IMG/VR virus record: IMGVR_UViG_3300014203_000013
DNA from: an uncultured virus (IMG/VR IMGVR_UViG_3300014203_000013)
Lineage: Duplodnaviria > Heunggongvirae > Uroviricota > Caudoviricetes
Strand: one strand, 5' to 3'
DNA length: 64,000 nucleotides
Position 1 is the first letter of the stretch. Each line of letters starts with the position of its first letter. A program made the position numbers and the translations under genes. Below are positions 24,070 through 59,440 of the stretch, piece after piece. The notes below the pieces were generated by a model. It was not told where the DNA came from and searched no databases. It worked only from the letters and a program-made list of their open reading frames with translations.

Positions 24070-24975
24070 TTAAATCTTTGTGCAAAGTTGTTTGTAAAGT
24101 TTCACCGTCTTGTTCCCGATGGACTTGGAGATTCTTGACTTATCCGTCATGTCGATTTCGCCTTCTGCTTCTCGAAAAACGTCTTCCACCATCGCCTTGA
24201 CGACCTTACCTGTATCTTTCAAATCTCTTGGATTCCCAAGCTTATCCAAGACGTGATTAAGCCTTTCCGCTACAACCCATTCTTCGGCGATAGAATCAGC
24301 ATTTTCAATCAGTTTGGCCTTCTCAGGGTCGAAATCCTTGACATCCGGGGTGTTTTGCCGTTCCTGGAATTCCGCACGCTTATGCTTGCAAATCACACGC
24401 TTTCCCCATTTGTTGGTGAATTCATGGATGGGACGGATAACAATACCTTCCCGAACCGGAGGATTGAAACCAAACCTATCGGTATTACCCTGACACCCGT
24501 TCCTCGCCGCGATTTCAGAAGGACTATCCCTTTCAATATCCAAAGCTTCAACAGTAGCAGGAACCCGCTTAAAGGGAACGAAGTCTAAGCCAAATTCTTC
24601 CGTAACCAAACGGCAGGCATCCGGCAAATCCCAGAACCGATCAGATGAAAACACATCAAAGGCAATGAAACGCAAATTTGACCCATATGTCTTTGACATC
24701 TTCTGCTGACTGCCGCCATATGCCTCTCCGTAAATGATGGCAGGCGTTTCCCCGAAAACCTTTTGAAAAGCAGCCGTCAAAGTTTCCTTGTTGAAAAGAT
24801 TGACGAAGTTCACATGGCTTTCTCCACCCGCAAAGAAACTGACTTCTTTCCCGTTCCAAGCAACGTGTGAAGATGTTCCGTGTGCCTTCTCCATCGCGAA
24901 GACTTCTTTGAATTCAAGAACCGTCTGGTCCTTGTAAAGATTGAGAATGTGTAAATAAGAAATATCAACCTCCAT
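24070..24975 (-). CDS. Rnl2-family RNA ligase (nucleotidyltransferase)
   Basis: EKAHGT motif I, IYGEAYG, FDV, EGIVIRP, KHK. Confidence 0.82.
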   Translation of the reverse strand: MEVDISYLHILNLYKDQTVLEFKEVFAMEKAHGTSSHVAWNGKEVSFFAGGESHVNFVNLFNKETLTAAFQKVFGETPAIIYGEAYGGSQQKMSKTYGSNLRFIAFDVFSSDRFWDLPDACRLVTEEFGLDFVPFKRVPATVEALDIERDSPSEIAARNGCQGNTDRFGFNPPVREGIVIRPIHEFTNKWGKRVICKHKRAEFQERQNTPDVKDFDPEKAKLIENADSIAEEWVVAERLNHVLDKLGNPRDLKDTGKVVKAMVEDVFREAEGEIDMTDKSRISKSIGNKTVKLYKQLCTKI

Positions 24976-25618
24976 TTTTTAAATACTCGTGAATAACCAA
25001 AGCTAGTTCCGGATTATCTTGTAAAAAACCTACTGATACATTACAGTTATTACAAAGCAATCCTCTAATTTTACCCGTTTTATGATCGTGATCTACCGCG
25101 AGACACTTTCCATTTTCCGTAGTGGTTTTACCACACACAGCACATTTTCCATCTTGCTTTTCAAGCATTTCATTATACATTTCTAAAGAAATACCATACT
25201 TAATTAACAAATTTCTGTTTTTTGCCTGTTCTTTCCTTTGTTTATAGTATTCTTTGTGAGAATTTTTGTATTCTTCTTTTTCCCTTAGTTCTAGCAAAAG
25301 GTCACTACAACATTCATGACAGTGTGGAGAATTGTTCTTTTTGCCTTTGGTGTGTGAAAATTCTTCTAAAGGAAGAACCCTTTTACATCTAGGACAGTAC
25401 CTCAAACCATTTTCACGCAACTTGTTTACTTCTCTTGTTGTCAAAGTTCTTGTTCTTTGTCCATTTTCTTTTCTTTTCTTTAGACGCTGTTCATAACGAC
25501 GAAGCATTCTACACGCTTTACACATCTTTTCATAACCAGAAATGGTTTCCCAAAATTCTGATAAAGGCTTTTCCTTACCACATTCTTTACATATTTGCGT
25601 TTGCATAAATCCCTCCAC
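24965..25618 (-). CDS. Endonuclease VII-family putative homing endonuclease
   Basis: Two N-terminal zinc ribbons; KYGISL...QDGKCAVCG...VDHDHKTGKIRGLLCNNCN. Confidence 0.88.
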   Translation of the reverse strand: MEGFMQTQICKECGKEKPLSEFWETISGYEKMCKACRMLRRYEQRLKKRKENGQRTRTLTTREVNKLRENGLRYCPRCKRVLPLEEFSHTKGKKNNSPHCHECCSDLLLELREKEEYKNSHKEYYKQRKEQAKNRNLLIKYGISLEMYNEMLEKQDGKCAVCGKTTTENGKCLAVDHDHKTGKIRGLLCNNCNVSVGFLQDNPELALVIHEYLKNGG

Positions 25619-25644
25619 TTATACAAATAGGATATTTATTAAAT

Positions 25645-25676
25645 CTTGTAGATTAAGAATGTGTAAATAACCGACA
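25645..25676 (-). pseudogene. Orphaned original 5' end of the Rnl2-like ligase gene (GYLHILNL)
   Basis: TTATTTACACATTCTTAATCTACAAG matches 24931-24958 with one substitution and a 2-bp deletion; preceded by GAGGTG RBS and promoter. Confidence 0.75.
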
Positions 25677-25710
25677 ACCCACCTCTTCTTTCCTTTTAAG
25701 ATTTGAAGAT

Positions 25711-25739
25711 ACTTTAACAGATATCCCCTAATTTGTCAA
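25711..25739 (-). promoter_or_regulatory. sigma70-type promoter (original ligase promoter)
   Basis: TTGACA-N17-TAAAGT. Confidence 0.7.
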
Positions 25740-26610
25740 GTCCACAAAGAGTTTTTATCCATGACAAAAAAATAGATTCTTTATGCTTAAAGTCACGATA
25801 GTCTATAAGCAACAAAGGAATGTTGTTTTTCTTACAATATTCAGTTTTAATTTTGTCCCTTATCTGAAGTGTCTGAAATTCGTCAGCAGAAAGAGTTTTC
25901 CCCTTTTTGAAAGTAATTGGAGAAAAATGTTGCTCTCCTTGTAATTCTACAAGACACAAAAGATTAGAACCTTTAAAAATAGCGAAATCAAATTTCAATC
26001 TACGAACATAGAGGCAATCTGGAAAGCTGAATTGTGTTTGAAATGAATAACCATTTCTTTCTAAGAAAATCTTAAATTCCATTTCTGCCCTAGAAACCAA
26101 ACATCCACAAGAAAGCTTGTGACCGCTTCTTAATAGAGAAACTTCACCATATGTCGTGCATCCACAATCACATAGGCATTTCCATAAAGATTTGTTTTTC
26201 CTTTTCCCCACACTTTCGATTGCAACCAGTTTGCCGAATCTTTCTCCTGTTATGTCTAATACTTTTGAACAAGAACCGCAAGAAGTTGTATGTCCACTTC
26301 GAATATTACCAGCCTCTGCAATAAATTCGATTCCGCATTCACACATACAAGAATATAGTTGTTTATGGTTTGTAGTAGAAAACAGACCGATAACGTAAAG
26401 TTTACCAAAGCTTCTTCCTGTTAGATCCTTTCGTCTCAAACAGCCACAACTTTTGGTTCTATCAGTTACTAAAGCCTCTGTCCTTACTGTTTTAAACCGA
26501 CCACAAGAACAAAAACATTTCCAGTAAGTATGCCGATTCCTACTTTTCTCTTTTCCTAAAACCGTTAGGTTCCCGAAATGCCGCCCAGTTAAGTCTGTTC
26601 TGTTAGACAT
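25714..26610 (-). CDS. Putative homing endonuclease: three DLTG.rFG.L..WxCxCxCG..SCG repeats plus Vsr/PD-(D/E)xK-like domain
   Basis: Repeats visible; LKFDFAIF, VELQGEQHF, RDKIKTEYC. Confidence 0.8.
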   Translation of the reverse strand: MSNRTDLTGRHFGNLTVLGKEKSRNRHTYWKCFCSCGRFKTVRTEALVTDRTKSCGCLRRKDLTGRSFGKLYVIGLFSTTNHKQLYSCMCECGIEFIAEAGNIRSGHTTSCGSCSKVLDITGERFGKLVAIESVGKRKNKSLWKCLCDCGCTTYGEVSLLRSGHKLSCGCLVSRAEMEFKIFLERNGYSFQTQFSFPDCLYVRRLKFDFAIFKGSNLLCLVELQGEQHFSPITFKKGKTLSADEFQTLQIRDKIKTEYCKKNNIPLLLIDYRDFKHKESIFLSWIKTLCGLDKLGDIC

Positions 26611-27553
26611 TTTTTAATGATTTAAACGTATCAATTAATTTGTGTTTATGCAATCCTGCCATTCGCATACCTTCAATTTTCTGTACAACAACCTCGTCTT
26701 CACAAATACCAGTACGAATATATTTGTCAAGAACATCATAGGTAAAACCAAAATTATCTTCATCTGTTTTCCCGCACATTCCATCCGTAGGAACTTTTAC
26801 AACCAACGCCTCTGGCAATCCCAACTCGTATCCCAAAGCCTTGACTTCGGTAACAGTCAGATTTCCTAGAGGAGAAAAATCTCCGGCCGCATCTCCAAAT
26901 TTAGTGCTATATGAAATGAAGTTTTCACTCAAATTACAGGTGTTCGCAACCCGTCCGTTAACACAGGCGGCAATTCCGTAAAGAGTTGTCATCCGAAGCC
27001 TAGCCGGGGTGTTGTTCCAATACACTGAATTGAAATACTGTCTAACTCCGCCGTTTTCACACACCATGCCGTCAAACCCGGCATCGATTTTTTTAGTCAA
27101 TTCCTTATAGGCACTTCCGATATCCACGAGTATATGCTGGATACCCAAATGTTCTACAAGCTTGTAACTGTACTCAATATCATCCTGTTTACAGTTCGGC
27201 ATCAAAACCCCAATAACCCGATCCCGACCCAAGGCTTCCACACACAGGGCAGCTACAACACTGCTATCTTTCCCTCCGCTGATCCCGATAATAGCCTTAC
27301 ATCCGTCACCGTTTAGTTTAAACCAGTCCCCAATCCACCTGACGACAGATTCCCGAATTCTGTAGTAGGAGGTGTTATTCAGATACATTACGGCATCATT
27401 GTCAGTCTGGAAAAGAGTATTAAGTCTTCCATCACTCTTCCAATGCCAATTGCCGTCATCCGTTTTAAACCCTTCCCAATCAACTTCTGTTGTCCTAAGA
27501 CAATCCCCATTTCTGCTAACGACAACGTCTCCGACTTTAATGTTTTTGAACAT
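26603..27553 (-). CDS. nadE: NH3-dependent NAD+ synthetase with short N-terminal extension
   Basis: GISGGKDSSV, NTPARLRMTTLY, TKFGDAAGDFSPLG, KVPTDG, DEDNFG. Confidence 0.92.
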   Translation of the reverse strand: MFKNIKVGDVVVSRNGDCLRTTEVDWEGFKTDDGNWHWKSDGRLNTLFQTDNDAVMYLNNTSYYRIRESVVRWIGDWFKLNGDGCKAIIGISGGKDSSVVAALCVEALGRDRVIGVLMPNCKQDDIEYSYKLVEHLGIQHILVDIGSAYKELTKKIDAGFDGMVCENGGVRQYFNSVYWNNTPARLRMTTLYGIAACVNGRVANTCNLSENFISYSTKFGDAAGDFSPLGNLTVTEVKALGYELGLPEALVVKVPTDGMCGKTDEDNFGFTYDVLDKYIRTGICEDEVVVQKIEGMRMAGLHKHKLIDTFKSLKNV

Positions 27554-27887
27554 ATTCTTCCTTTCCCCACATAACCAGAATAGAATAATATCCTGTTTCT
27601 TGCACCTTTTCAATATCTGTAACAGATAAGGAATCGTCAAAAACGGAAACACTGTATCCGAGTCTCCGAATCCTCGGCACAATATATTTGACAGTCCTCC
27701 CGATATAACCTGCGCTTGACTTCCCGGTTTCGCCCGCTTCAACAGAACGAAAAATCTCCTTTTCAAGAAGTCTTAAGCAACTTGCGTCGATCTCCCGTTT
27801 ACGCTTGTCGGCGTCGATAATCTGTTCTTTCCATCTCGTGTAACGGGAAATAGCTTTCGCGACGAAACATGGATATAGCATTTTCAA
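27537..27887 (-). CDS. Hypothetical protein
   Basis: ORF in operon. Confidence 0.55.
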   Translation of the reverse strand: MKMLYPCFVAKAISRYTRWKEQIIDADKRKREIDASCLRLLEKEIFRSVEAGETGKSSAGYIGRTVKYIVPRIRRLGYSVSVFDDSLSVTDIEKVQETGYYSILVMWGKEEYVQKH

Positions 27888-28246
27888 CCTTCTTCTTTTC
27901 CGGAATCGTAAAGAATATCCGTAAGAACAGACTTAAGCACGTCTTCATCCCTATCCCTTTCTCCTTTGGGAAGATTTAAAGAAGTGCTTCCGTAGGAATC
28001 AAAACGCCATGTCAATACACCGTCTTCTCCTTTTATGAAAATGGTTCCGGCACCGATGGCTTTTAATCCCGCCTTGATCGTCTCTACGGATTTTACGATT
28101 TCCCGAAATCCGTAAAAATCCATATCCGACGCAAAACCCACATCTCCGTTCTCAAAAATAACGTACCTGAAAATACCCAAATCTTCTTCCCTAACGTTAT
28201 TCGGGTTCGTAAGTATCCGATAAGAATTCGTTAAAATCCCTGACAT
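27884..28246 (-). CDS. Hypothetical protein
   Basis: GGAGG RBS. Confidence 0.65.
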   Translation of the reverse strand: MSGILTNSYRILTNPNNVREEDLGIFRYVIFENGDVGFASDMDFYGFREIVKSVETIKAGLKAIGAGTIFIKGEDGVLTWRFDSYGSTSLNLPKGERDRDEDVLKSVLTDILYDSGKEEG

Positions 28247-28258
28247 AAAAACCTCCCG

Positions 28259-28627
28259 TTACCATACGTTTTTGACAGCATACCCGAATTTCTGACAACC
28301 TTCCAAGAACATCTTGACACTGTGCCGTTCCCAGTCGGTTTCTAAATTTTCTAAACAAATCGGATTGTGCTTTATCCGTTCCGTAGTAATCGGAGTTTCC
28401 GTATCGTTGATGTCGGTTCCTAACCATCTGTTCATAAGAACCCCGCAGATACGGCATTCCAGATACCCTTTGTCCAATCCGAAATCCACACTTCCACAAA
28501 TCTTCTGAACTTTATTCGAAGCCCGCGTAAACCAGTTCTTCTCTGCCCTTGTCATCGTCTCCCGACTGACACAATCTCCAAGATTCCCGTTTCTTTTAAC
28601 CCGGTAGGCAATCGCATCGTATCCCAT
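28259..28627 (-). CDS. Hypothetical protein
   Basis: AGGAG RBS; MGYDAIAY. Confidence 0.65.
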   Translation of the reverse strand: MGYDAIAYRVKRNGNLGDCVSRETMTRAEKNWFTRASNKVQKICGSVDFGLDKGYLECRICGVLMNRWLGTDINDTETPITTERIKHNPICLENLETDWERHSVKMFLEGCQKFGYAVKNVW

Positions 28628-28636
28628 AACATTCTC

Positions 28637-28843
28637 CTATCTATTGTCAGGTTGAAGCTGTTGTTCGGCGTTTTTGGCACCTTCGATAAAACCTTCAATT
28701 TCATTGCGCAGAATAAAAAATCCGTCTTCATTCAATTCTGCTTCAAAAAATGAATTAGATGTGCTATTCTCGTTTCTTTCATATTTGAAAGAATCCATCA
28801 ATTTGAGAACATCTTCAAGAATTTTTTCAACCGGTCGCTTCAT
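28637..28843 (-). CDS. Hypothetical protein
   Basis: First ORF after promoter cluster. Confidence 0.6.
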   Translation of the reverse strand: MKRPVEKILEDVLKLMDSFKYERNENSTSNSFFEAELNEDGFFILRNEIEGFIEGAKNAEQQLQPDNR

Positions 28844-28988
28844 TTTTCTTCCCTTCGTTTAATCTGTAATAAAAACACCGAACAAACACCTCTAAGATTT
28901 GAAAACAACTATAAAATACCATATGCCTTGTAATTTGTCAACTGTTCCGGATAGAAATCCTTAAAAAAAATTAATTGTCTAAAATCCC

Positions 28989-29216
28989 GGATTTTCAGCT
29001 ACAGGTATCAGAGAAATTTAATCACTGTCAAACAAAACCTGGCTTTAGCCGTCCTATTCCTTTTAACCCTTTCCTTCTGTGTCCCTCTGTCTGATTATCA
29101 GAAAATAATCCTTCCGAAATAAAAAAACCTGACTTTTGTTTTTTACGGATTTTCAGCTACATATATCTGACCCTTTTTATCACTTGTCAAGCTTTTTAAA
29201 ATTTAGCCGTCCTATT
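28989..29216 (-). repeat. Two ~70-bp imperfect direct repeats, each with a TTGACA promoter-like element
   Basis: GGATTTTCAGCTACA...TGTCAA...TTTAGCCGTCCTATT at ~28989-29058 and ~29147-29216. Confidence 0.8.
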
Positions 29217-29428
29217 TTTTATGTCTTTATACCTGTCTTGTCAACAGATAATTTCGCTTCTGAAATTATCTTTCATTGTTATAACATCATTTAATATATA
29301 TTTATATATCTCTACAGGGATTCCGATAAGGGATAAAAATCATATTTAAGGACAATGAATAAAATAGAAGTAATCTTTTTATATAGATAGGATTTCCCCG
29401 ACATACCATATTTAAGCCTAACTGTCAA

Positions 29429-29491
29429 GTTTTAACTGTCTGGTTTTAACTGTCTGGTTTTAACTGTCTGGTTTTAACTGTCTGGTTTTAA
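29429..29491. repeat. Tandem 14-bp repeat (GTTTTAACTGTCTG) x4.5, iteron-like
   Basis: Four perfect copies plus a partial copy; degenerate copy just upstream. Confidence 0.9.
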
Positions 29492-29532
29492 GAGAATTTT
29501 ATAAGTCGCGTATTTCCGACATTCAAATTCTG

Positions 29533-29665
29533 AAAATTTTTCTTGACAGAAATTTTTCTTGACAGAGGGCTGATTTATAGGATTTATGGGCAGATTTGTA
29601 GGGTTTGTAGGGTTTATAGGGGATTTATAGGGGATTTAATGGTTGTAGGAATCTGTAGGAATTTA
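29533..29665. repeat. Short direct repeats (TTTTTCTTGACAGA x2; GGATTTATAG / GGGTTTGTAG-type arrays)
   Basis: Read directly; locally G-rich on + strand. Confidence 0.7.
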
Positions 29666-29771
29666 TCTATTGAGGAAAGGGGGGTTAGAAGAGAGAAGTA
29701 TTTTTACTTTTAGGTTTTAAGTTCTATAGGCTTAGGGTAGTTTGTATTAGGCAGTTAGACACGGTTAAACA

Positions 29772-30563: not shown

Positions 30564-30596
30564 TTTATTTACCTTTGTTTTTCTTTTTTTTTGAAA

Positions 30597-31448: not shown

Positions 31449-31471
31449 TTTATTCCTTGTATTCCTTGTAT

Positions 31472-32690: not shown

Positions 32691-32691
32691 G

Positions 32692-33886: not shown

Positions 33887-34615
33887 CTATGCTGTCGGGA
33901 AAGACCATCCGTCATGTTTGGCCTGTTCAAAATTGAAACCTTTATCAAAATGCATCAAAACAACTCGTTTTCTTTCTTCTGGATCGGTTATGATTTGACA
34001 AAGTTTTTTGTATGAAAGATGAATGTTATCAGGATAGTCAAGCCAACTGCAATCATGATAGATTTTCTTTACCTGATTTAAACGGAAAAGAGAAAGGATG
34101 TTTGTGTTAAATCCTTTAGAATCCCCGCTGTAATAAAAACAATCTCCTAAGCTGTCGGCAAACAAAAAACCAAAAGATTCCAGTTTTTCCGCATGACTTT
34201 CTTTTATGGGGAAAACAGAAATATTCACGAGTCCAGAAGGGCTGAGCATATCTGTTTGAAAGACTTTCTTTTTACAAGCTTCCAACACGTTCTTCTCATA
34301 TATCTCATCTAGCGTCCCCTGAAGGTCAAGAATTTGAAAAACAGCCTTCGGGGCATAGACCTTCGGATGAACTTTCAAGACATAAAAGCAATAAAAAAGG
34401 AGACTTGAAAGACTTCCGCAATGATCACTGTGGCTATGTGAGACAAAAATGTTGATATTCTTGAATCCGTTCAAAAGGTCTCCGACCTGAATTTGGTGAA
34501 AAACGGATTCTCCGCAATCCAACAGAAATGCGGAATTACCAACGGGAAGACATGCTGACGTGTTCCCCAGTGTCGTGTTGAAACAACTTCCTGCTCCTAA
34601 AAATTTCAAGTCCAT
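33887..34615 (-). CDS. MBL-fold hydrolase (RNase Z-like)
   Basis: LGAGS, LDCG, SHSHSDH, SH, YSGD, MH. Confidence 0.85.
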   Translation of the reverse strand: MDLKFLGAGSCFNTTLGNTSACLPVGNSAFLLDCGESVFHQIQVGDLLNGFKNINIFVSHSHSDHCGSLSSLLFYCFYVLKVHPKVYAPKAVFQILDLQGTLDEIYEKNVLEACKKKVFQTDMLSPSGLVNISVFPIKESHAEKLESFGFLFADSLGDCFYYSGDSKGFNTNILSLFRLNQVKKIYHDCSWLDYPDNIHLSYKKLCQIITDPEERKRVVLMHFDKGFNFEQAKHDGWSFPTA

Positions 34616-35167: not shown

Positions 35168-35773
35168 TTAAAAGAATTTTGCGATTTCCCTGTCTTCTTG
35201 TTTCCAAATCTGCTGACGCATTTTAATAGATTTGGCACGCAATTCCTGCGCATCTGGTTTGTGCGGAAGACCGCGCAACTTCATACCGGATTCATGAAGG
35301 TGCTTGTCGCCCTTCTTGTGATTACAGGCGTGGCAAGACAAGACGATGTTGTCCCAATCGGTTTTACCGCCTCTGCTACGCGGATGTACGTGGTCATAAG
35401 TGAAGCTTCCCTTGCCCCAATTGAGTTTGCATCCGCAATACATACAACAACCTTCATCACGGACAAAGATATTGTATCTGCTGATTCTTGGATCTTCTGG
35501 GATGGGACGCATACCGATTCCCGCATAAAACATCAGGACGATAAATTCCGGCTTTGGGATTTGACCGGTTCCGAATCTTACGGTTTTGGTAGAGACTCCG
35601 TTTTTTATCCAATCGTTATATTCAAAAAGTTCACCTGTTTCTTTATTCAAGAACATGGCACGGCCATTCAAAACCTTTTTAATGGCTTTTGAAACGGTGA
35701 TTTTTTTAATAACTTGCCAATTTTTATTCAACATATATGGCATGATCTGATAAGCCTTTCTTTTCTCAAACAA
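35168..35773 (-). CDS. HNH endonuclease (McrA-like)
   Basis: RDEGCCMYCG...DHVHPRSRGG...NIVLSCHACNHKKG. Confidence 0.88.
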   Translation of the reverse strand: MFEKRKAYQIMPYMLNKNWQVIKKITVSKAIKKVLNGRAMFLNKETGELFEYNDWIKNGVSTKTVRFGTGQIPKPEFIVLMFYAGIGMRPIPEDPRISRYNIFVRDEGCCMYCGCKLNWGKGSFTYDHVHPRSRGGKTDWDNIVLSCHACNHKKGDKHLHESGMKLRGLPHKPDAQELRAKSIKMRQQIWKQEDREIAKFF

Positions 35774-35779
35774 TATACA

Positions 35780-36157
35780 CTATTTTCTGATCTTTGTCAA
35801 TTCACAATAGATAATTGATAGGACGACTTTCATATTGTTTCGGATTGCCGCGATATCAAATCTGAGGGTGCGTATTCCCTTGCTCCAAAGTACGGCATCC
35901 CTATGTTTGTCATATTCTTTCCTCGCCAAATGATAAGGCCCATCAACTTCTATCGCGATTCCGCGATACGGAGATCCTTCTTTATTCGCGGCGACATAAA
36001 AATCAAGAATATATCCATAACTAAGGCTTTGTCTGTAAATCGGCACATTAGGGAAAGTATGATCCAATGCTTTCCCTAGATCCATTTCAGGATGTGTCTG
36101 ATTACGTCGAAGATACTTCGCGAATGCTTTTTTTTGAGGAGAAGCTTTATTTCTCAT
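35780..36157 (-). CDS. DUF559/Vsr-like endonuclease
   Basis: LRRNQTHPE, YILDFY, IEVDGPYH, YDKHRD. Confidence 0.85.
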   Translation of the reverse strand: MRNKASPQKKAFAKYLRRNQTHPEMDLGKALDHTFPNVPIYRQSLSYGYILDFYVAANKEGSPYRGIAIEVDGPYHLARKEYDKHRDAVLWSKGIRTLRFDIAAIRNNMKVVLSIIYCELTKIRK

Positions 36158-36161
36158 ACCT

Positions 36162-36464
36162 CTATTCTTCATATCCAGCCACCTTTAGTCTTTCTTTAAG
36201 AACTTTATTTTCATTTTTAAGCTTTTCATTTTCAACCAACACTTCCGTAAGTTTCGGAGCGACTTCAAAACTCATATTCGGCCATCCAAGAAACTTACGG
36301 AATCTTCCAGCGACCAAAGCCGCTTGCACGCATGAATCGGGATTGTCACCATTCGAGATGATATATTGACCTTGTTCTGATTTTGCCCACATAACGATAT
36401 GTGTAAGGTTGAATTTCTTCCTGATCGGAGCGAGACACGCAGGCGAAATCTTTTTTAAAAGCAT
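36162..36464 (-). CDS. Hypothetical protein
   Basis: AAGGAG RBS, coiled C-terminus. Confidence 0.6.
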   Translation of the reverse strand: MLLKKISPACLAPIRKKFNLTHIVMWAKSEQGQYIISNGDNPDSCVQAALVAGRFRKFLGWPNMSFEVAPKLTEVLVENEKLKNENKVLKERLKVAGYEE

Positions 36465-51022: not shown

Positions 51023-51115
51023 GTTGAATTAGATGCAAAATCCGCCGAAGTTTTGCCTTCGTGCGGATGTGGTTTTTTGTTTTTGTACAGATGTTTTCTG
51101 TATCAAAAAAACATC

Positions 51116-51594: not shown

Positions 51595-52331
51595 GAAAGA
51601 ATCCTTTTAGTCGGTCTTTTAAAAGCCAATTCAGATTCAAGTGTGTAAACTTCCCTGTCCAAGTCATCCCTCTTTTCCCAGTCTTCTTTAACAAGAATCC
51701 CCTTATCAGAATCTTCGTCTATTTTCTTTTCTAAGGCGGATAACTGATTCTTAAGCCCTTCTAGTCGCTTAAACGAATCTGCGTGTTGCGTCGGATGTTC
51801 TTGGAAACGAAGGGAATCAATAAGTTTTGACCCTTCTTCTGTCAGCATCCCTAAGTCGATTTCCTGATCTGGATAATTCTGCTGTAGCTTTTTCAAAAGA
51901 AGCGTTCCGTACCCCTTCCTTCTTTCTTCTGGGTTGACGTTTAGGAATTTAACCTTTGGCTTGCCTGCATATTCTGAATAGTCAATTTTGCCTACTGGGA
52001 CATGATCCCTATGAAGACTCAAAGTAAGATCCTTCTGCCCACCGCTATACCCAGTCAGTTCTTCATTGAACTTGTGCCTGACGTGATGATTCGTTCTATC
52101 GGCATTCGGATGGATCTTTAGGTATTCCTGCATTTCTTCTTCTGTATCAAATTCCATTGCTGTTCTAGGGAAAGGATCGTGCCTTTCATAAAGACTTTCT
52201 ATGTCCGTGCCTGCCCTTTCTGCTAATTTGTCAAGCAATGATTCTCCCGCTCCGTAGTCTGGCTGGCTTCTTAACGGTTGTTGAAAGCCACTCGCTAAAA
52301 TTTTAGCCAAAGCTTGTAGTTCTTTTTTCAT
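51591..52331 (-). CDS. GNAT acetyltransferase-domain protein, possibly virion-packaged
   Basis: VNPEERRKGYGTLLL acetyl-CoA motif; N-terminal MEFDTEEEMQEYLKIHPNAD motif. Confidence 0.7.
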   Translation of the reverse strand: MKKELQALAKILASGFQQPLRSQPDYGAGESLLDKLAERAGTDIESLYERHDPFPRTAMEFDTEEEMQEYLKIHPNADRTNHHVRHKFNEELTGYSGGQKDLTLSLHRDHVPVGKIDYSEYAGKPKVKFLNVNPEERRKGYGTLLLKKLQQNYPDQEIDLGMLTEEGSKLIDSLRFQEHPTQHADSFKRLEGLKNQLSALEKKIDEDSDKGILVKEDWEKRDDLDREVYTLESELAFKRPTKRILS

Positions 52332-52350
52332 GCTAATGTTGCGGGTATCA

Positions 52351-52391
52351 AAAAAAGAAGGGAACCTGATTTTATTCTAGTTCCCTCTTTA
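52351..52391. terminator. Putative terminator hairpin
   Basis: AAGAAGGGAAC...GTTCCCTCTTT. Confidence 0.5.
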
Positions 52392-52413
52392 TTTTAATAT
52401 CTACTTATTGACT

Positions 52414-53685
52414 TTAGTATGTTTCACCTTCGTTAAGCCAGAATTCGGTATAGTCAAATTCATACTTTCCGCTGACGAAGAATGATGTTATGCATGCCGG
52501 TGTGTGACGGGCGGCTGACATATCGAATCCCGTGCTGGATACCAAGCAACCGGCAATTCCCAAATCAGGCGTATTGCAAGGCGCGTGGTAATGACCCATT
52601 AGAATCTTGTCAAAATGCATGTCTTCTGACATATTCATTCTGAGGTGGCTTTCACGCCAAAGCTTTCTTGTAATACCCGTCATCGGGAACAAAGCACCTC
52701 CACCGCCCCTTACGCAGTTCCCGTGCATGATAAGATAACGTCTGTCATGAATCCTGATAATCTGCTGTAGTTGAGGATAAATGTTAAATTCAATATTATC
52801 GTGTTTCGAAACCAACGCTTTTGTAAGGTGTCCGACCAAGTAATTGTAACTGTTGGTTCCGTCTGCGAATTCTATCTTTTGAGTAACACGGCTATGATTA
52901 TCCGGGACGATAAATTCTATCCTGACTTTCTTGAAATGAGGGGCTAGGCTTGCGAATAGGCTAGACAGTAATTCTGAAGCCTTCTTGACCTGTTCCGGGC
53001 AACTGAATTCATTTGATCTTATCAGTTCATCATGGATATCTCCGCTTATCATATCTCCGAGGCAACAAATGCATATTTCATCTATGACATAGCTGTTCCG
53101 ATGAAGTTCACACCAATCAAGAACTTTCTTTAAATATATTTCTACCCTTCTGCAAGCAATGCAATAATCAAACTTATTGAAACCGGGGATGTATTCCTTT
53201 GCTCCGATGTGAAAGTCCGCCAAGAGGGATACAAGTGTCGCCTGTTTTTTATCTGACTGCTTCTGTGGGCGATAGAGTATCGGGAAAGGCTTGATGGTAT
53301 TGATGTCTCCAGTAAGTCTTTCCAGGTTGAGTTCTTCATTACCCTTGTTTTGTAGAAGTCTTTTTAACTGCCTTTTAAGCTTGGAATTTTCAGAAATTAA
53401 GGCGTGTTTAACCGGATCTTCAATTTCATCTGGGACCTCTGGTTCCCATCCATCCGGCGCTTCCGGAACTGTTTCTGAATTTACATCGCTGAAATCGTTT
53501 TCCCAGGTTTTCGGAATTCCTTTTATTGGTTTCCATTTTCCGTCTTCAGTCATAAGTTGACCGAGCTTGCGAACCACCGCCTTTCTTGTCGCTCCAGTTT
53601 CTGAGACGATCTGCTGAATCAATTCTTCCTTTTCGTCGATATCCTGAAACATTTGAAACGCTTCTGCAATCGTTGTTTTGTTCAT
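52414..53685 (-). CDS. Calcineurin-like phosphoesterase with N-terminal coiled region
   Basis: ADFHIG, LGDMISG, DNHSR, MHGN, MGHYH. Confidence 0.8.
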   Translation of the reverse strand: MNKTTIAEAFQMFQDIDEKEELIQQIVSETGATRKAVVRKLGQLMTEDGKWKPIKGIPKTWENDFSDVNSETVPEAPDGWEPEVPDEIEDPVKHALISENSKLKRQLKRLLQNKGNEELNLERLTGDINTIKPFPILYRPQKQSDKKQATLVSLLADFHIGAKEYIPGFNKFDYCIACRRVEIYLKKVLDWCELHRNSYVIDEICICCLGDMISGDIHDELIRSNEFSCPEQVKKASELLSSLFASLAPHFKKVRIEFIVPDNHSRVTQKIEFADGTNSYNYLVGHLTKALVSKHDNIEFNIYPQLQQIIRIHDRRYLIMHGNCVRGGGGALFPMTGITRKLWRESHLRMNMSEDMHFDKILMGHYHAPCNTPDLGIAGCLVSSTGFDMSAARHTPACITSFFVSGKYEFDYTEFWLNEGETY

Positions 53686-54999
53686 TCCTGTCCTTTGGTT
53701 TGGTTTTCTATTCTAGCTTTGGCTATCTGGAAATATTCATCTTCCTTTTCAATTCCAATAAAATCGAATCCTTCAAGTAAGGCGGCTTTACCTGTAGTTC
53801 CGCTTCCCATAAATGGATCTAGAACTGTTCCATTTTCAGGTGTTACAAGTCGGCATAAATAGCGCATCAATGTCAACGGCTTAACTGTAGGATGGATATT
53901 CTTTTGCCCTTCTTTGGGTAAGTCTTCGTTCCGTTCTCTGACTGAAGCCTTCGCACAGTAGAAGAATCGAGCCGAAGAACCAGAATCATTTCTAGGAATT
54001 AGTTTCCCTCTTCTTAGAGGAATATTTTTACCTTCTTTTCCGATTTCCGCATTGCCGTTTGATTTTCCACTTTTAGCATCTGGAAACAATTCAAGAACTT
54101 CTTCGCTCCCGTCGTGAATTAAATTAGCTGGCCAACGACCAAGTTTTTCGCTACGAGCCACGGACTGGCGCGAACGCTCTACATTTGCCGCAACCGATTC
54201 AGGGTTGTTCATCCAAGGGCGCTTCCATCCACCGTTCATTTGTTGACCAGCGCTTGAGTGCCCTCCTCCAAGTTTGTCTTCCGTCACAACCCTGCACCCT
54301 TCAATGTTTATAGCCCCTGTGCCGTGTTCCAATCCGTTTTGAGCAACTGTACCTTCAAAAGGCTTCCGAGCTAAAATAATGGGCTCTAGCGCTGGTTTTA
54401 AACCTGTTCCCCAGCCCTGCCACTTCTTAGCCTCTTCTGTTGCCGGAACATCATAAATAATTCTCTGTTTCGTCTTTTCATTTTCGTCGTCTTTTATTAT
54501 CCCTCCGACTCTTTCCCCTCCGCTCCACACCCTAGCCCCTTCGGTTCTTTCTTTCCCTGCTGCTTTATCAAGAGCTTTGCTTACATCCATGCTTTTCGGG
54601 AAACCCTGAGCATACACCCATGCCACTGTATCTCTGATTTCGAATCCGGCAAATCGCAAAGACATCGCCATCCAATCTTGTGTGCGGGTTCCTGCAAAAA
54701 GAAAGCAGATGCCCGCCCGGTTTCAACACGCGTAGACATCCCTTCCAAAGGTTTGGCTGAGGAACAAAAGCATCCCATTCTTTACCCATGAAACCCTTTC
54801 CAGTGATTTCATGATAACCCTTTTCCACCCAATCTTTCATGACTTCAATCGGGTCTGGTTGTTTACCTAGCCCGTACGGGGGATCGCAACATATTGACGA
54901 GACAGAACTAGAAGGAATATTTTTGAGTTTTTGTAAGCTATCTCCACAAACAATTTCAAACCTATCTGTTTCAAACGAATCCTTCCAAATTTTATCCAT
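53682..54999 (-). pseudogene. N6/N4 DNA methyltransferase (beta class) split by a +1 frameshift at 54696-54700
   Basis: DPPY and RVLKPGGHLLSF in 54568..54999; AGTRTQDW...HPTVKP...VLDPFMGSGTT in the other frame; removing one T from the T5 run joins them. Confidence 0.85.
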
Positions 55000-55192
55000 T
55001 TTTTATATTCTCCATTAAACTACTGATAGTTTCTGATAAGTTTAGATTTATATCATATTCCCAAAGCTCAATAAGTTTAATGTTTAAAGACTTAAGTAGA
55101 GAAACCTTTTTGTTGTATGCAATTAAAGTTTTCTTTTGTGCAAGAGAAATTGAACCATTTGGGTAAAATCTAGGATCGCATTGAACGAATAA
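54992..55192 (-). pseudogene. C-terminal remnant of a Vsr-like endonuclease
   Basis: CDPRFYPNG...KKVSLLKSLNIKLIELWEYDI...IKNG*; no start codon; stop overlaps MTase ATG. Confidence 0.6.
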
Positions 55193-55289
55193 TAACGGAA
55201 GTTCTAGGGGGATATATCACGATGGAATTTACGCTATTATCAGCAAGTTCTTTAATGGTTTCATTGCTATTTCCCAAGTACAAGTTCAT
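55170..55289 (-). pseudogene. Orphaned original 5' end of the DNA methyltransferase gene
   Basis: MNLYLGNSNETIKELADNSVNSIVIYPP (motif IV damaged); ATG overlaps upstream TAA. Confidence 0.7.
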
Positions 55290-55570
55290 TATTTCCAAAA
55301 ACCTTCAATTAATCGGCATGCCGATTCCATTTCTTCCATCATTTTTCTTGTCTTCTCCACCTTCTTAATATCTTTAATTCTTACAGCATTAATCCATTTC
55401 CGGATTTCAGGTTCTGTGATTCTACTGGAACACTTTTCTGCAATTAAATACTTATTGTCAACAATCAAATAATGTCTACCCTGTTTCTTTACACTGTAAC
55501 GTCCTTCCCGAAACACTTCAATACTGTTTTCTAAATAACTAACGTCTCTTGGTTCTGCTAAATACCACAT
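55289..55570 (-). CDS. Hypothetical protein
   Basis: ATG MWYL after AAAGGA RBS. Confidence 0.55.
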   Translation of the reverse strand: MWYLAEPRDVSYLENSIEVFREGRYSVKKQGRHYLIVDNKYLIAEKCSSRITEPEIRKWINAVRIKDIKKVEKTRKMMEEMESACRLIEGFWK

Positions 55571-55572
55571 TT

Positions 55573-55794
55573 TTATCCTTTCGTTTTTCTTAAAGTCCAA
55601 CGCAAATAGAATCTGGTTCCAAGTATACGTATCCACAGAACACGCCATGAGTTCCATGCTTTAATTTCAGGAAATTCATAACCGCACCATCCTTTGAATT
55701 TCCCCTTGAATCCACCACAATAGCTACAAGTACAATTTAGATGCTTTTCAAGAAGTATTGTATTCCCGAACCTACGGATATCTAAGATATTCAT
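55573..55794 (-). CDS. Hypothetical protein
   Basis: ATG overlaps resolvase TGA. Confidence 0.5.
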   Translation of the reverse strand: MNILDIRRFGNTILLEKHLNCTCSYCGGFKGKFKGWCGYEFPEIKAWNSWRVLWIRILGTRFYLRWTLRKTKG

Positions 55795-56378
55795 TGTTGG
55801 TCCCCGATTTTCTTGTTTTCTCTTTCCTTCCAAGTAACGGCAATCGCCATTGCGCTCCACGCGTCTTTTGCGAACCCATAGAAGAAACCGGGATTTTTCT
55901 TTGTTCCGACTTCACCGAATCTGTCGATAAGAGCCTGCCTGATATTCCCGTCTTTGGCCTTGCTTGTATTACAGAGACACATTTTCTCTTCCATGCGTGC
56001 CACCATATCAACTCTTAGACCATTGTCCAAGGCCCGTTGAATGAAACGTCCATTCCACTGGATGCTGTCAATGGTAGATTGTCCTATCGCCATGCCATAG
56101 CTTTTAAACTGTTCCAATACCACAACGTCTTTATCTGAAAGGGTATTGATTATGTCTAGAACTTCTTCATTCCCTATCTTTCCGAACTTATATGGTTTCA
56201 GAGTGTCGAAACCGACAATACAATATCCTGTTTCTACAGTTCCTGCATCAATCGCAAGAATTTTATTTTCCGTCTTCTTTAACAGATTGCCCAAACCGTC
56301 AAACATTTCTTCAAAATCTATCTTTCCTTCTTCCCCGTCTGGAAAGACTGCCTTTAAATTATGTGTTTTTATTTCCAT
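55791..56378 (-). CDS. RuvC-like Holliday junction resolvase
   Basis: ILAIDAGT.ETGYC, VVLE, KDAWSAMAIA. Confidence 0.8.
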   Translation of the reverse strand: MEIKTHNLKAVFPDGEEGKIDFEEMFDGLGNLLKKTENKILAIDAGTVETGYCIVGFDTLKPYKFGKIGNEEVLDIINTLSDKDVVVLEQFKSYGMAIGQSTIDSIQWNGRFIQRALDNGLRVDMVARMEEKMCLCNTSKAKDGNIRQALIDRFGEVGTKKNPGFFYGFAKDAWSAMAIAVTWKERENKKIGDQQ

Positions 56379-56989
56379 ACGTTTTCCATTTGTTCTTTCA
56401 TCAGTCTATCATGTAATTCCATGAATAGATTACGTAGGCCTTCATCTTCAATCGACTTCATGAACATCAGACCGAACATGCGGATTTCACTTTTTTCCCG
56501 ATTAACGAATCCGAATTGTCTGGTTTTAGGATTATCACAGAGATTGTGCCAAGACTTGTCATTGATACATTCAAGTAGTTCTGCTGTATCCGTTGAATTC
56601 TTTACATTCTGAATCCTTCCGTATTTCTGAAACACAAATTGAATGTTGCTTTCCTGTTTTTTTATTTCATCTTCATACCACACGACACAACCTTTTTTAC
56701 CTTCCAAAATATCTTCATATGGAATGACGTGAATCTGCCAGTCTTCTTCCTTTTCAGTAAATGAAAAAAGTTGTTTTATTTTCAGAAGGTCTCCTTCTGA
56801 ACCAACAAATATTTCTTCTGAATCTTTATTCGTATTGATGACACGGAAAAGATAATTTCCGACTGTCAAGGAATCTCCTTTGATTTCGATATCCGAAATT
56901 CCTTCTTTTAGCATTATGGCAGACATGAAGTAATAAAAACGTTTCTGCCCGTCCATGCTCGTGTTGATTCTGATCTCTTGAATTTTCAT
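56369..56989 (-). CDS. Hypothetical protein
   Basis: Coupled ORF. Confidence 0.65.
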   Translation of the reverse strand: MKIQEIRINTSMDGQKRFYYFMSAIMLKEGISDIEIKGDSLTVGNYLFRVINTNKDSEEIFVGSEGDLLKIKQLFSFTEKEEDWQIHVIPYEDILEGKKGCVVWYEDEIKKQESNIQFVFQKYGRIQNVKNSTDTAELLECINDKSWHNLCDNPKTRQFGFVNREKSEIRMFGLMFMKSIEDEGLRNLFMELHDRLMKEQMENVWK

Positions 56990-57232
56990 CTATTTATTCT
57001 CTTTTGGTTTTGTGTCATAGCACATTTTACAATAGCAATGTGATTCTACTAATTTTCCGTCTCTATATGTTTCTTCCGTTGTCCAAGTATGAGGTTTCGG
57101 TTCCACATAACTTTCGTCTGAAAGCTTTAGCATGGTTGTCCCGCAGATCTGACAGACTTGGCAAGGCTTAGGCGATTCCCCGCTTCCCCAAAACTTCTTT
57201 TCACCGCATTTACAAGTAAAGTATTTCATCAT
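56990..57232 (-). CDS. Zinc-binding small protein
   Basis: CKCG...CQVCQICG...CKMC; GGAGG RBS. Confidence 0.6.
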   Translation of the reverse strand: MMKYFTCKCGEKKFWGSGESPKPCQVCQICGTTMLKLSDESYVEPKPHTWTTEETYRDGKLVESHCYCKMCYDTKPKENK

Positions 57233-57244
57233 TATTCCTCCGTT

Positions 57245-58099
57245 TTAAAACATCGATATATCATCGTCTTGAAGAGTCGTTTTTGTTTCTTTATCCATCT
57301 GCCCTTTAATACGTTTAAGCATAGCCTTGATATCCTTTACGGAAGAAGATTCCTCTTTCTTCTGAAAACTGTTAATCTTTATAACTGAACGATTCTTACA
57401 ATCTGGCGAAGCACAAAACCTGCATAAGCCGCTAGGACGACATTCCTGACCATCGCTATTAAGAATTTCCACAGTCTTTTTATCCAACGAATCCAAGACG
57501 GAATCAAACGCCATGACATTTATTTTGGTGTTCTGTATCTTATGTCTGACAATCCAGAAATTGACATTAACGTCGCCATCAATAAATGGATTGTCATTAA
57601 CGGCACCGAGAAAATATATTTTAGCTTGCCAATTGTTTCCCAGTTCTTCTTTGGTAAAGACATTCTTCTGCGTCTTCAAATCAATGATATCGGCTTTCCA
57701 GTTCCTGTCTATGTCAAGTCTGTCAATATAACCGATAACAGGGATGCCGCAAGGCAGGTTGAATTTAATTTCCTTTTCAAAACCTACGGCATCAGAAATG
57801 TTCATATAGCCCCATTCCAAACAGTTCCGAGTTAATTGATCTAGGATCGGCAAGTCTTCCTCCAGCACCTTGTTTTCAGAAATAGCCTGTTCCCTATAAT
57901 AAAACGGATCTTGTTTCTCCAATTCCTTTCCTTGTGTTTTTGCTTTACATGCAAGTTCAAACATCGAATGAAATGCTTTCCCTAGTCTTGCTGATGGATT
58001 CGCATCAGGACGTATTTTTAATATATATTCTGTATAAAATTTATGTTTACACACTTCGAAAGTTTTTATCCCGCTTGCAGAAACCGACTTAATATCCAT
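57245..58099 (-). CDS. PD-(D/E)xK RecB/Cas4-like exonuclease
   Basis: SAS...C, G..FH, GYIDRLD, IDLKT, QAKIY, CRFC...C. Confidence 0.88.
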   Translation of the reverse strand: MDIKSVSASGIKTFEVCKHKFYTEYILKIRPDANPSARLGKAFHSMFELACKAKTQGKELEKQDPFYYREQAISENKVLEEDLPILDQLTRNCLEWGYMNISDAVGFEKEIKFNLPCGIPVIGYIDRLDIDRNWKADIIDLKTQKNVFTKEELGNNWQAKIYFLGAVNDNPFIDGDVNVNFWIVRHKIQNTKINVMAFDSVLDSLDKKTVEILNSDGQECRPSGLCRFCASPDCKNRSVIKINSFQKKEESSSVKDIKAMLKRIKGQMDKETKTTLQDDDISMF

Positions 58100-59285
58100 T
58101 TTTTATCCTTTTAATAAAATCTCTTACAACAACCTGTTCTGTTTTCCCGAATTTATTCAAAATCCATACCTTTAATATACTCCCAGCCTTTAAATTTTCA
58201 GGCTTTAAAGTGTTTTTTGTAAAATCCCAAAGTTCGATAAATCTACGAATTGAAGCCACAGAGTCTTTGAATTCGGGTAAAACCCCACTACAATATGGAC
58301 ATCCACCTTTATTAAACTTTCTGCTGTTTGGAGAGGCCTTAAATTCAAAATTATGTTTTAAACAATACCATAAATATTTAACATGTGAAGTCGAAGAAAT
58401 CATTTCAGGATTTTGTAGATTATTTAAACTCCATTCTTTAGCATATTCCATATCTGAAACTTTTTCGTTTATCTTTCCGGCACAAACAGGACATCCATTC
58501 CCTCCACATGCCCTAGAGTCAATCCTTGCGGACCATTCATGTCCTCTTTTACATTTCCAAAAGGCAGAATATTCCGAACCACGAGAAAAGTTTTCTGGTA
58601 ATAATGGGTAATTCTTTTCACTCCATTCTAAACAAAGTTCAGGAAAGTTATTTCTAAGATTGTTTTCTGGATTTACTCTGCGATATTTAATCAACAGTTC
58701 TTTATAAAGCTGTCGGCCCTTTATTTCAGTAAGTCCGATTTTGCCTAGTAAAGTTTTTATCACATCTTCTTGTGATTCTTTTTTATCATAACAAACATCT
58801 TCATCCCCGATTCTTTCAAGGTTTTGTCTCAGACGTATCATTCTGATTCCACTTAGAATTGCCTTGTTGTTTTTCTTAACATCTTTTGCTCGGTCCTTGT
58901 GCCAAAAAGACCCATCAACTTCTATGCCTAATTTCAATGATGGGACAAAAACATCAATTTCATATCCTAAACTTTTATCACAAGATTTAGTATCTTCGAA
59001 ATGCGACTTCATTTCCGCAAAAACTCTTAATTCCATTTTAGAAACGCGACGGCCCTTGCTACATTCAGGACATCCACACCCAGATCTAGTTCTCACCCGA
59101 ACTTCTGTTTCCCAAAGGAAACCACACTTATTACATTCCCACCATACCTTTTTCGCACTTCCACAGAAAAAGGCATCAATTGGTAAAGCATTTTTAGAAG
59201 ACCATTCCGAGACCAAGTGAGGGAACGTTTTAGAAATCAGTTCTGTTTTTGGGGTTCTATGCCATTTGGGGTTTTCTGTATTCAT
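58089..59285 (-). CDS. Putative homing endonuclease: treble-clef zinc-ribbon repeats (DUF4379-like) plus Vsr-like nuclease domain
   Basis: EWS.KN...GS.KKVWW.C...GCP.C repeats; EIDVFVP..IEVDGSFWH; more AT-rich than flanks. Confidence 0.82.
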   Translation of the reverse strand: MNTENPKWHRTPKTELISKTFPHLVSEWSSKNALPIDAFFCGSAKKVWWECNKCGFLWETEVRVRTRSGCGCPECSKGRRVSKMELRVFAEMKSHFEDTKSCDKSLGYEIDVFVPSLKLGIEVDGSFWHKDRAKDVKKNNKAILSGIRMIRLRQNLERIGDEDVCYDKKESQEDVIKTLLGKIGLTEIKGRQLYKELLIKYRRVNPENNLRNNFPELCLEWSEKNYPLLPENFSRGSEYSAFWKCKRGHEWSARIDSRACGGNGCPVCAGKINEKVSDMEYAKEWSLNNLQNPEMISSTSHVKYLWYCLKHNFEFKASPNSRKFNKGGCPYCSGVLPEFKDSVASIRRFIELWDFTKNTLKPENLKAGSILKVWILNKFGKTEQVVVRDFIKRIKNGY

Positions 59286-59308
59286 ACTTTAAGTACGAAT
59301 ATCAAAAT

Positions 59309-59440
59309 TTATGCAATGCGGCCCATTAAGGCGGAAGGATGGGTCGGAGGCTTAATTTTCAAGACATATTCAGTATAGCACTTTTTCGGGCATGTTTCGT
59401 AAGTCTTGATACAAGAAGCCGATATTTTAGTAAGCTTCAT
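59309..59440 (-). pseudogene. Orphaned original 5' end of the exonuclease gene (43 aa)
   Basis: MKLTKISASCIKTYETCPKKCYTEYVLKIKPPTHPSALMG; 22/40 identical, ungapped, to the N-terminus of 57245..58099; ATG overlaps upstream TGA. Confidence 0.85.

Follow-up and report, generated by a model that had tools for sequence, protein, structure and literature searches.

We analyzed 64,000 nucleotides (nt) of DNA from an uncultured virus of the Caudoviricetes (IMG/VR record IMGVR_UViG_3300014203_000013; this whole stretch is "the window"). At three sites in the window, a broken copy of a gene's 5' end lies at the native position in the operon, followed by an intervening open reading frame (ORF) and then by a complete version of the same gene, whose start codon overlaps the end of that ORF. 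The three genes encode a RecB-like exonuclease, an Rnl2-like RNA ligase, and an N6/N4 DNA methyltransferase. We think it probable that homing-endonuclease cassettes occupy sites within these genes, near the start, without any intron or intein. The evidence consists of the layout itself, empty alleles in a related genome, asymmetric divergence of the two copies with a sharp boundary, variation between genomes in the presence of the nuclease, and a hybrid allele with no nuclease. An earlier note, made from this sequence alone, had described the layout at all three genes. The layout is indeed real at all three, but the support is unequal. The exonuclease is unusually well documented, while the case is partial for the other two genes: the note's reading was overstated for the ligase and is unproven for the methyltransferase.

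In a metagenome bin of 381 contigs (G000), the window forms the first 64 kilobases (kb) of a 124-kb contig (C1). Its coding is nearly all on the minus strand, as are the three sites. Its genes are those of a jumbo phage: a DnaE that has a Hint module, NrdD with its activase, ClpP, a patatin, NAD synthase, two RNA ligases, an SbcC-like ATPase, the RecB-like exonuclease, and several nuclease genes. For comparison we used G001, a 304-kb IMG/VR contig (loci L004, L006, and L029–L032) that is about 78% identical to the window and collinear with all of it (67–93% nucleotide identity per block, and 73–86% across the window); we call it the relative. We also used near-identical fragments from other assemblies (L003, which is 99.9% identical, L005, and L007). 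As population data, we placed Logan contigs from four landfill or groundwater runs (X2–X5) on positions 52000–61000 of the window.

The working exonuclease gene (57245-58099, minus strand) encodes 284 amino acids (aa) and matches positions 2–242 of the 247 in the PDDEXK_1 profile (E = 1.8e-21). Its ATG (58099) overlaps by 11 nt the stop codon of a free-standing, homing-endonuclease-like gene of 398 aa (58089..59285, minus), which has three DUF4379 zinc fingers (E = 2.3e-43) and a Vsr-like PD-(D/E)XK region. The Vsr-like match, to MTES_1575, is weak (E = 0.0064, under the Pfam cut-off). The 398-aa ORF also matches PHROG 559/3339, which are annotated as HNH or homing endonuclease. Upstream of the nuclease is the stranded native 5' end of the exonuclease gene (nt 1–119 of the gene, at 59322..59440, minus), and its ATG overlaps the stop codon of an upstream 80-aa gene. 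The ORF that begins there has 43 codons (59309-59440, with its stop at 59309) and matches PDDEXK_1 profile positions 2–39. The similarity of the two flanks of the 398-aa ORF scores 122, as compared to a mean of 29.9 and a maximum of 46 for 200 shuffles. (Flank similarities were tested with 200 shuffles at the protein level, and the ligase DNA repeat, below, with 1000.)

In the relative, the exonuclease gene is uninterrupted and directly follows the 80-aa gene, and the 398-aa nuclease is absent. In the first 119 nt of the gene, the remnant and the relative agree at 104/119 nt (87%) and 38/40 aa, while the start of the working gene (57981..58099, minus) agrees with the relative at 71/119 nt (60%) and 23/40 aa. 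Beyond nt 119, the working gene (57245..57980, minus) is as native as the remnant (583/661 nt or 88%; 190/210 aa), so the identity switches abruptly at nt 119/120. All eight residues within aa 1–40 that are invariant in the family are kept in the working copy. The 5' end of the working exonuclease is indeed a diverged allele, as the earlier note had proposed.

The boundary falls within the codons of a conserved motif, G40...H44, and each copy keeps one side of it: the remnant is broken after G40, directly before the nearly invariant H44. Relative to the relative's sequence, the remnant has an apparent deletion of 2 base pairs (bp) exactly at nt 119/120. The deletion is followed by about 30 nt of decayed similarity (59286..59321, minus; roughly nt 120–150 of the exonuclease gene), which has a 2-bp deletion and a 5-bp insertion as compared to L004, and which reaches the nuclease's ribosome site and adjoins its ATG. 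This decayed segment probably travels with the cassette.

A local tandem duplication of the gene's start, perhaps during sloppy repair of a cut, could also yield two copies that then diverged, with nothing foreign being imported. The pattern at the exonuclease argues against this: the untranslated remnant is 87% identical to the relative, yet the translated copy, which is under selection, is 60% identical and then abruptly 88% identical from nt 120 onwards. The same asymmetry between native and foreign segments recurs in two further genes from this assembly, LigA and RtcB (described below). In favor of a duplication, no donor was found for the exonuclease segment among 13 homologs, and the two copies at the ligase, discussed below, are nearly identical. 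Overall, we consider it unlikely that these are simple duplications.

The population data support mobility of the foreign start and the nuclease. Contigs from run X2 reproduce the window (57591-58117, 58091-58788, and 58851-61000). In the landfill run X3, one contig joins 58031 to 59373, with 5 ambiguous bases at the joint, and so skips 1341 bp; the depth over the nuclease is 0–1.2, as compared to about 5 in the flanks. This joint predicts a gene in which codons 1–23 come from the remnant and the rest, starting at codon 24, from the working gene. The predicted product is identical to P0001 (284 aa, found in a separate JGI assembly), which has aa 1–25 as in the remnant and aa 26–284 as in the window's gene; over the body, P0001 and the window agree at 210/210 positions. 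The simplest reading is that the two copies recombined at TATACNGAATAT, where they are best conserved, and that the nuclease was thereby lost. Alternatively, the allele arose by repair from the working copy in which the nuclease was not copied. Either way, the X3 allele carries the foreign codons 26–40, so it descends from a genome with the cassette.

Run X4 has the nuclease too, and over 58064-58586 and 58659-59115 it shows 0 differences from the window's. Yet at identities of at least 88%, almost no flanking phage is present, so the flanks differ by over 12%. One X4 contig has 15 differences overall. None is listed from 59223 to 59326, and the 11 that are listed are at third-codon positions of the remnant (59327-59372). 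This is how a cassette would look if it had moved into another phage, with the remnant coming from the recipient (one contig, at a depth of 2.7). Two observations bear on whether flanking markers may have been co-converted with the nuclease: the switch in identity at nt 119/120 and, again in that one X4 contig of depth 2.7, the lack of listed differences as far as 59326, with differences upstream of it. The nuclease-free hybrid in X3 and the identical nuclease beside a different remnant in X4 support the proposal, made in the earlier note, that the nuclease spreads and that alleles of the gene's start are swapped. Separately, a contig from run X5 matches the window up to 58030 and continues into unrelated sequence, which may be a further variant at the exonuclease insertion region.

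At the ligase, the layout and the empty allele are confirmed, but a foreign, recoded start is not. The Rnl2-like RNA ligase (24070-24975, minus; RNA_ligase PF09414, profile positions 1-167/171) is preceded by a homing-endonuclease-like gene of the Endonuclease VII type, with a His-Me finger (24965..25606, minus; 213 aa; PF02945, E = 2.5e-23; PHROG 2633). This is the family that had been assigned to it from the sequence alone. (The ORF extends over 24965-25618, with the likely ATG at 25606.) The ligase ATG overlaps the nuclease's stop codon by 11 nt. The first six codons (MEVDIS) are new, and only those; the ligase aligns with L006 from 24957 onwards. What remains of the original 5' end is a 26-nt direct repeat (25645..25670, minus) that corresponds to codons ~7–15 of the ligase and matches 24931-24958 in 26/28 columns. 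It has no start codon, and it has a 2-nt gap, or in other words a 2-bp deletion. So, as had been claimed, an apparent 2-bp deletion lies near the junction at both the exonuclease and the ligase. None of the 1000 shuffles reached the score of this DNA repeat. At the protein level, the similarity of the flanks is not significant (a score of 40, with a shuffle maximum of 55).

In the relative, NAD synthase is followed by a promoter-like spacer of 62 nt and then by the ligase. The region is 186 bp long there and 1751 bp long in the window. Two nuclease-like ORFs are missing from the relative: the Endonuclease VII-type gene, and a second homing-endonuclease-like ORF of 298 aa (25714..26610, minus) with zinc-ribbon repeats and a PD-(D/E)XK-like C-terminus (PHROG 374/559/9084). 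The 298-aa ORF lies right after NAD synthase, and tests for duplication of its flanks were negative. Thus, at both the exonuclease and the ligase, the relative has the empty allele, with remnant and body fused in frame, that the earlier note had predicted.

The ligase's 5' end is not more diverged from the relative than its body is (14/21 vs. 437/579). The remnant is closer to the window's ligase (19/21 nt) than to the relative (12/21). Both copies share the lineage-specific YLHILNL, where the relative has YMHINQL. Near-identical copies (26/28 columns) are what a local duplication would give, and the claim of a diverged replacement, which stands for the exonuclease, is not supported here.

At the methyltransferase, a relation to the other sites is harder to establish. 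The N6/N4 DNA methyltransferase (53682..54999, minus) has its own full N-terminus, matches N6_N4_Mtase in Pfam and PHROG 67, and has its DPPY motif at 54868-54891. Its ATG is overlapped by 8 nt by the stop codon of a 69-codon spacer ORF (54992..55204, minus) that ends in ..IKNG*. Before the spacer is a stranded remnant of 28 codons (55206..55289, minus), which has the native start and ends in ..IVIYPP; its ORF runs on out of register to ~55170. The remnant resembles the N-terminal motif of the methyltransferase up to DPPY (a score of 44, with a maximum of 41 in 200 shuffles), and it has no match in Pfam. The complete methyltransferase, with a different and longer N-terminus, starts 207 nt past the remnant.

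The relative lacks the methyltransferase because of a clean deletion (L004 8810-8880) that fused the native ATGAA to the last ~20 codons of the gene. In this scar, the ATGAA overlaps the stop codon of the upstream gene. The scar implies that the methyltransferase is ancestral at this position and that the window's remnant is at the native start. The spacer had been described as a Vsr-like remnant. However, it has no detectable nuclease ancestry: it has no match in Pfam (E ≤ 5), in PHROGs, in a search of 5.8 billion proteins, or in its own genome, and local BLASTP against seven nucleases found nothing. Because the spacer matches nothing, the argument for a nuclease at this site is by analogy only. 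In the window, an additional T at 54696 (T5 instead of T4) also breaks the methyltransferase gene in two; in L003 the gene is intact, with 438 aa. X2 shares this T, and L003, X3, and X5 lack it. Either the split gene is a true pseudogene variant, or the T is a homopolymer error. Also, a contig from run X3 matches the window up to 55006 and then continues into unrelated sequence, so there may be a further variant upstream of the methyltransferase's start.

All three junctions in the window (24979, 55003, and 58103) share AAAAATGGA, with the upstream ORF ending in ..KNG(G/Y)* and the gene starting with ATGGA. On the coding strand, this 9-mer is found 8 times, of which 5 are at start codons, with two ordinary genes (59679 and 41187) among them. 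It may reflect a favored context for starts rather than common ancestry. Pairwise BLASTP between the nucleases found nothing significant.

Could the remnants be true first exons, with the inserts being removed as introns or inteins? Inteins do occur in this phage's DnaE and in LigA, which is on contig C4 of the same assembly. Also, short N-terminal exons beside nuclease genes are known for the terminase of phage ICP1 (described in the available portion of PMC10448857). But in the window, Rfam at the gathering threshold identified only four tRNAs and no intron family. Pfam found no Hint or intein match in the 22 ORFs scanned around the three sites. Furthermore, the remnants end in frameshifts or stop codons, and the downstream genes already have a full N-terminus, so splicing is unnecessary and would duplicate the N-terminus. 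We consider splicing very improbable, and this part of the earlier note stands.

An assembly artefact that joined strain variants seems more remote still, with a probability close to negligible. The source is indeed a metagenome bin of 381 contigs. However, independently assembled sequences (L003, L005, and the X2 contigs) have the same junctions, and the longest stretch of similar bases between the two exonuclease copies is about 14, which is too short to mislead a 31-mer assembler.

The layout is not limited to these three genes. For each ORF of at least 80 aa on contigs C1–C4, we looked for similarity between the preceding 260 nt and the following 210 nt. This unbiased scan recovered the exonuclease and three more cases, all of which we examined with Pfam and by comparison to the relative. 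(At the ligase and the methyltransferase, the similarity is under the scan's protein threshold.) The relative is empty at all three of the new sites. In RtcB (C2 68855-70282, with the cassette extending to 71620; L041; scan score 116), a GIY-YIG/NUMOD3 gene is followed by a stranded native C-terminal fragment of 106 aa, which has ~88% nucleotide identity to the relative. The C-terminus within the RtcB gene is too diverged to align with the relative. In LigA (C4 24700-27972; L042; scan score 77), the nuclease belongs to DUF4379, a native C-terminal remnant is likewise stranded downstream, and the switch is at ..GEDAG. LigA also carries an intein with a DUF7487 ORF, which the relative does not have. 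The third case, the CoaB (DFP) gene (C2 63888-64619; cassette 62294-64619, or L041 2294-4619; scan score 56), is of the N-terminal type, with a native remnant of 15 codons that matches the relative at 42/45 nt. The intervening ORF of 474 aa matches PHROG 22677. Of its 106 homologs, 4, which are distant, have DUF559 or MTES_1575 matches, so the ORF may represent an unrecognized nuclease family. C2 and C1 are joined on one 208-kb contig in another assembly, and C4 is likely from the same phage. With RtcB and LigA, the idea that the design is specific to N-termini has to be given up.

Cassettes of this kind are not a general property of nuclease genes. Three of the six nuclease-like genes in the window (ZnR-Vsr, HNH, and DUF559) have no duplication in their flanks. 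The tandem pair at 35168-36172 (minus), with HNH (201 aa) and DUF559/Vsr-like (130 aa) genes, is also in the relative, has no flanking duplication, and resembles nuclease genes of the ordinary intergenic kind. As controls, we found 0 convincing cassettes among 344 ORFs from 17 unrelated loci and 0 in the 74 kb of the relative that is syntenic. In those 74 kb, the relative has insertions of its own, namely an intergenic DUF723/DUF4379 ORF as well as an intein, and no duplication accompanies either of them. The former, of 591 aa (G001 143657-145432; L029 17658-19433), sits cleanly between NrdD and the next gene, and the window has none there. We rejected several other matches from the scan: three tandem paralogous genes similar to C5 cytosine methyltransferases (C1 70014-73219), paralogous C-termini (C1 121419-123983), and low-complexity antisense matches on C3.

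In the well-resolved cases (the exonuclease, RtcB, LigA, and the CoaB remnant), a point in the gene separates two native-like parts, the stranded copy on one side and the working gene on the other, and a foreign segment and the nuclease gene are found between these parts. We propose that a cassette consists of a free-standing nuclease gene plus its own version of the coding segment that extends from the gene's start to the insertion point. This substitute would be fused in frame to the resident body, which would keep the gene whole, and the resident's original start would be left upstream as a dead, short ORF. We presume that the recognition site would straddle the insertion point and would be intact in neither copy: the remnant would hold the left half only, with a small deletion, and the working gene would hold the right half beside foreign sequence. 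To spread, the nuclease would cut the uninterrupted allele of a co-infecting phage, and double-strand-break repair would use the remnant as one homology arm and the gene's body as the other. The first insertion might have occurred by one-sided, illegitimate double-strand-break repair, which is known for T4 (as described in the available text of PMC2988022).

The native start codon is kept by the remnant in three of the four N-terminal cases. The remnant's stop codon is ~24–27 nt before the nuclease's ATG in the exonuclease and CoaB cases, and ~70 nt before the new ATG of the methyltransferase. These arrangements suggest that the remnant ORF and the overlapping stop and start codons couple the translation of the remnant, the nuclease, and the gene.

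With somewhat more confidence than doubt, we extend this proposal to a general, splicing-free route by which phage nucleases could enter essential genes. The nuclease would carry a spare of the nearer end of the gene, whether N- or C-terminal, would split its own target, and would swap terminal alleles. At N-terminal sites, the stranded start would serve as a leader ORF that passes the gene's expression signals on to the nuclease, with the gene restarting at the nuclease's overlapping stop codon. Recombination between the copies would later delete the nuclease and produce hybrids, as in X3, that might be immune.

Several points weigh against our explanation. Nuclease activity, the positions of cuts, and the resistance of both copies to cleavage are predictions from sequence. 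At the ligase, the copies are so similar (19/21 nt) that divergence cannot protect the gene, and the duplication is too short to show a foreign origin. At the methyltransferase, the cassette has no recognizable nuclease, and no uninterrupted allele was found, as the relative has a deletion there. The substitute start of CoaB matches the relative at 28/45 nt and its body at 382/552 nt, so the start is hardly more diverged, and the whole CoaB gene may have been replaced. No close donor lineage for the substitute exonuclease start was found among the 13 homologs (the best matches at 27/40 aa). The X3 and X4 observations each come from a single contig of low depth (4.9 and 2.7). Finally, all of the comparisons to empty alleles use a single relative, and scans with an exonuclease alignment, one of metagenome contigs and one of genome contigs, yielded no further relative. 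In other searches for relatives, none of 50,697 phage records had a megablast match to 57000-60000, and tblastn with the exonuclease and ligase found only distant matches (under 60% identity). A degenerate DNA pattern for the exonuclease remnant, searched in metagenome contigs, identified only the relative's own phage, in another assembly, and the exact 33-nt pattern occurred in 0 viral contigs.

The absence of a recognizable nuclease from the methyltransferase spacer and the ligase remnant's lack of a start codon would also fit with scars of dead elements: inactive or domesticated nucleases left as neutral relics, with no ongoing spread and no protective role. However, neither the 398-aa nor the 213-aa ORF is broken, the 398-aa gene has 0 differences in X4 where the flanks differ by over 12%, and the nuclease's presence varies between near-identical genomes. 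We therefore doubt this explanation, to which we would give about one chance in ten, and prefer mobile cassettes.

The earlier note could not confirm that this design is novel. The design has a precedent in fungal mitochondria: the 'gene hybrids' formed by mobile endonuclease ORFs (mORFs), which are described in the available text of PMC3630166 for atp6 of Allomyces macrogynus (Paquin et al. 1994, as cited there) and for atp6, atp9, cox2, and nad3 of Glomus. In these hybrids, as here, an endonuclease ORF lies in the coding region near the end of the gene, and a diverged, probably foreign copy of the terminal segment is used. Also as here, the native segment is stranded beyond the ORF and is closer to relatives: 91–98% in Glomus, vs. 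64–81% for the used copy (same source), and 87% vs. 60% for our exonuclease. Across our sites, a diverged copy in use with a native-like copy stranded is seen at the exonuclease, RtcB, and LigA, and not at the ligase. The RtcB and LigA cassettes have exactly the C-terminal orientation of the mORFs that the source describes. In contrast, the cases in the window are mirror images, with the start replaced and the nuclease preceding the gene. Other differences from the mORFs, as far as that source describes them, are that the nucleases here are from phage families (Endonuclease VII, DUF4379/Vsr-like, and GIY-YIG) rather than LAGLIDADG; that they are separate ORFs with overlapping stop and start codons, not in phase with the gene; and that spread would occur in co-infections.

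Among phages, two arrangements with a nuclease gene in essential coding sequence are the mobA/gene 60 cassette of T4 and the 'genes-in-pieces' arrangement of mobE and nrdA in Aeh1. In both, the gene is kept working and the target site is destroyed, as would be the case here. However, they rely on translational bypass or on a split into two polypeptides, whereas here a terminal segment is duplicated. As with introns and inteins, insertion would be at the nuclease's own recognition site, but here a duplicate of the terminal segment, rather than splicing, would make the gene whole.

The intronless homing of the T4 seg and mob genes (SegF, SegB, and MobE; available portions of PMC2988022 and PMC2790892) is also similar, in that a free-standing nuclease cuts a nuclease-free relative, flanking markers are copied, and markers are excluded locally; here, the cutting is predicted. 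A free-standing ORF from a homing-endonuclease family is found at the exonuclease and the ligase, and not in the methyltransferase spacer. Presence and absence at the same site is seen too: the relative is empty at the ligase and exonuclease, and X3 skips the 1341 bp. According to the same portions, the T4 elements are intergenic or split a gene into two working pieces, whereas here they lie inside a frame that is restored by the duplicate. In the available text of the review of T4 mobile elements, the strings 'duplicat', 'pseudogene', and 'truncat' do not occur.

Environmental phage-like DNA also contains fractured genes in which split inteins flank a free-standing nuclease gene (available text of PMC2677866). 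There too, a free-standing nuclease interrupts a conserved gene, but as described in that text, these genes need protein trans-splicing. In the mitochondria of Tremella fuciformis, an N-terminal duplication is linked to an intron (available text of PMC8393795). There, as here, the gene's start is partly foreign and a duplicate N-terminus is left behind; that source describes a mobile intron, while no intron was found here. We did not find a description of this design for phages in open-access full text or in bioRxiv.

If our proposal is correct, it would extend a mitochondrial phenomenon to viruses and to the starts of genes, and it would give selfish nucleases a third route into conserved phage coding sequence, beside introns and inteins. 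If such cassettes are common, mosaic gene ends and short 'hypothetical' ORFs in phage genomes would have a source that has so far been hidden. For annotation, they would account for short orphan ORFs that resemble the start or end of a gene and lie beside nuclease genes. The first or last tens of codons may differ in history from the rest of the gene, which would affect trees and recombination maps. A sharp switch in identity is also a candidate recognition site for nucleases of the DUF4379/Vsr-like and Endonuclease VII types. And because the signature is based on position, it flags candidate nucleases such as the 474-aa ORF of the CoaB cassette.

We also noticed several other features of these genomes. 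Within the DnaE ORF (61126-63993, minus), 429 bp (62220-62650) are absent from the relative, and residues 439-493 match Hint; the insert looks like a mini-intein without a nuclease domain, judging by its domain content. In the relative, an Rnl1-type RNA ligase (G001 175219-176594; L031 9220-10595) is interrupted by ~1.4 kb with Hint/intein matches and a 300-aa DUF7487 ORF; the window's copy of this ligase (17256-18377) is uninterrupted. Four tRNA genes are clustered at 1187-2580 of the window. Near the tRNA cluster, the relative has ~5 kb of extra sequence (G001 194043-199129), whose frames look like more tRNA genes. Finally, the gene at 33887-34615 (minus) encodes a protein with a metallo-beta-lactamase fold and has a sub-threshold match to the anti-Pycsar protein Apyc1 (40.5 bits, with a cut-off of 50).

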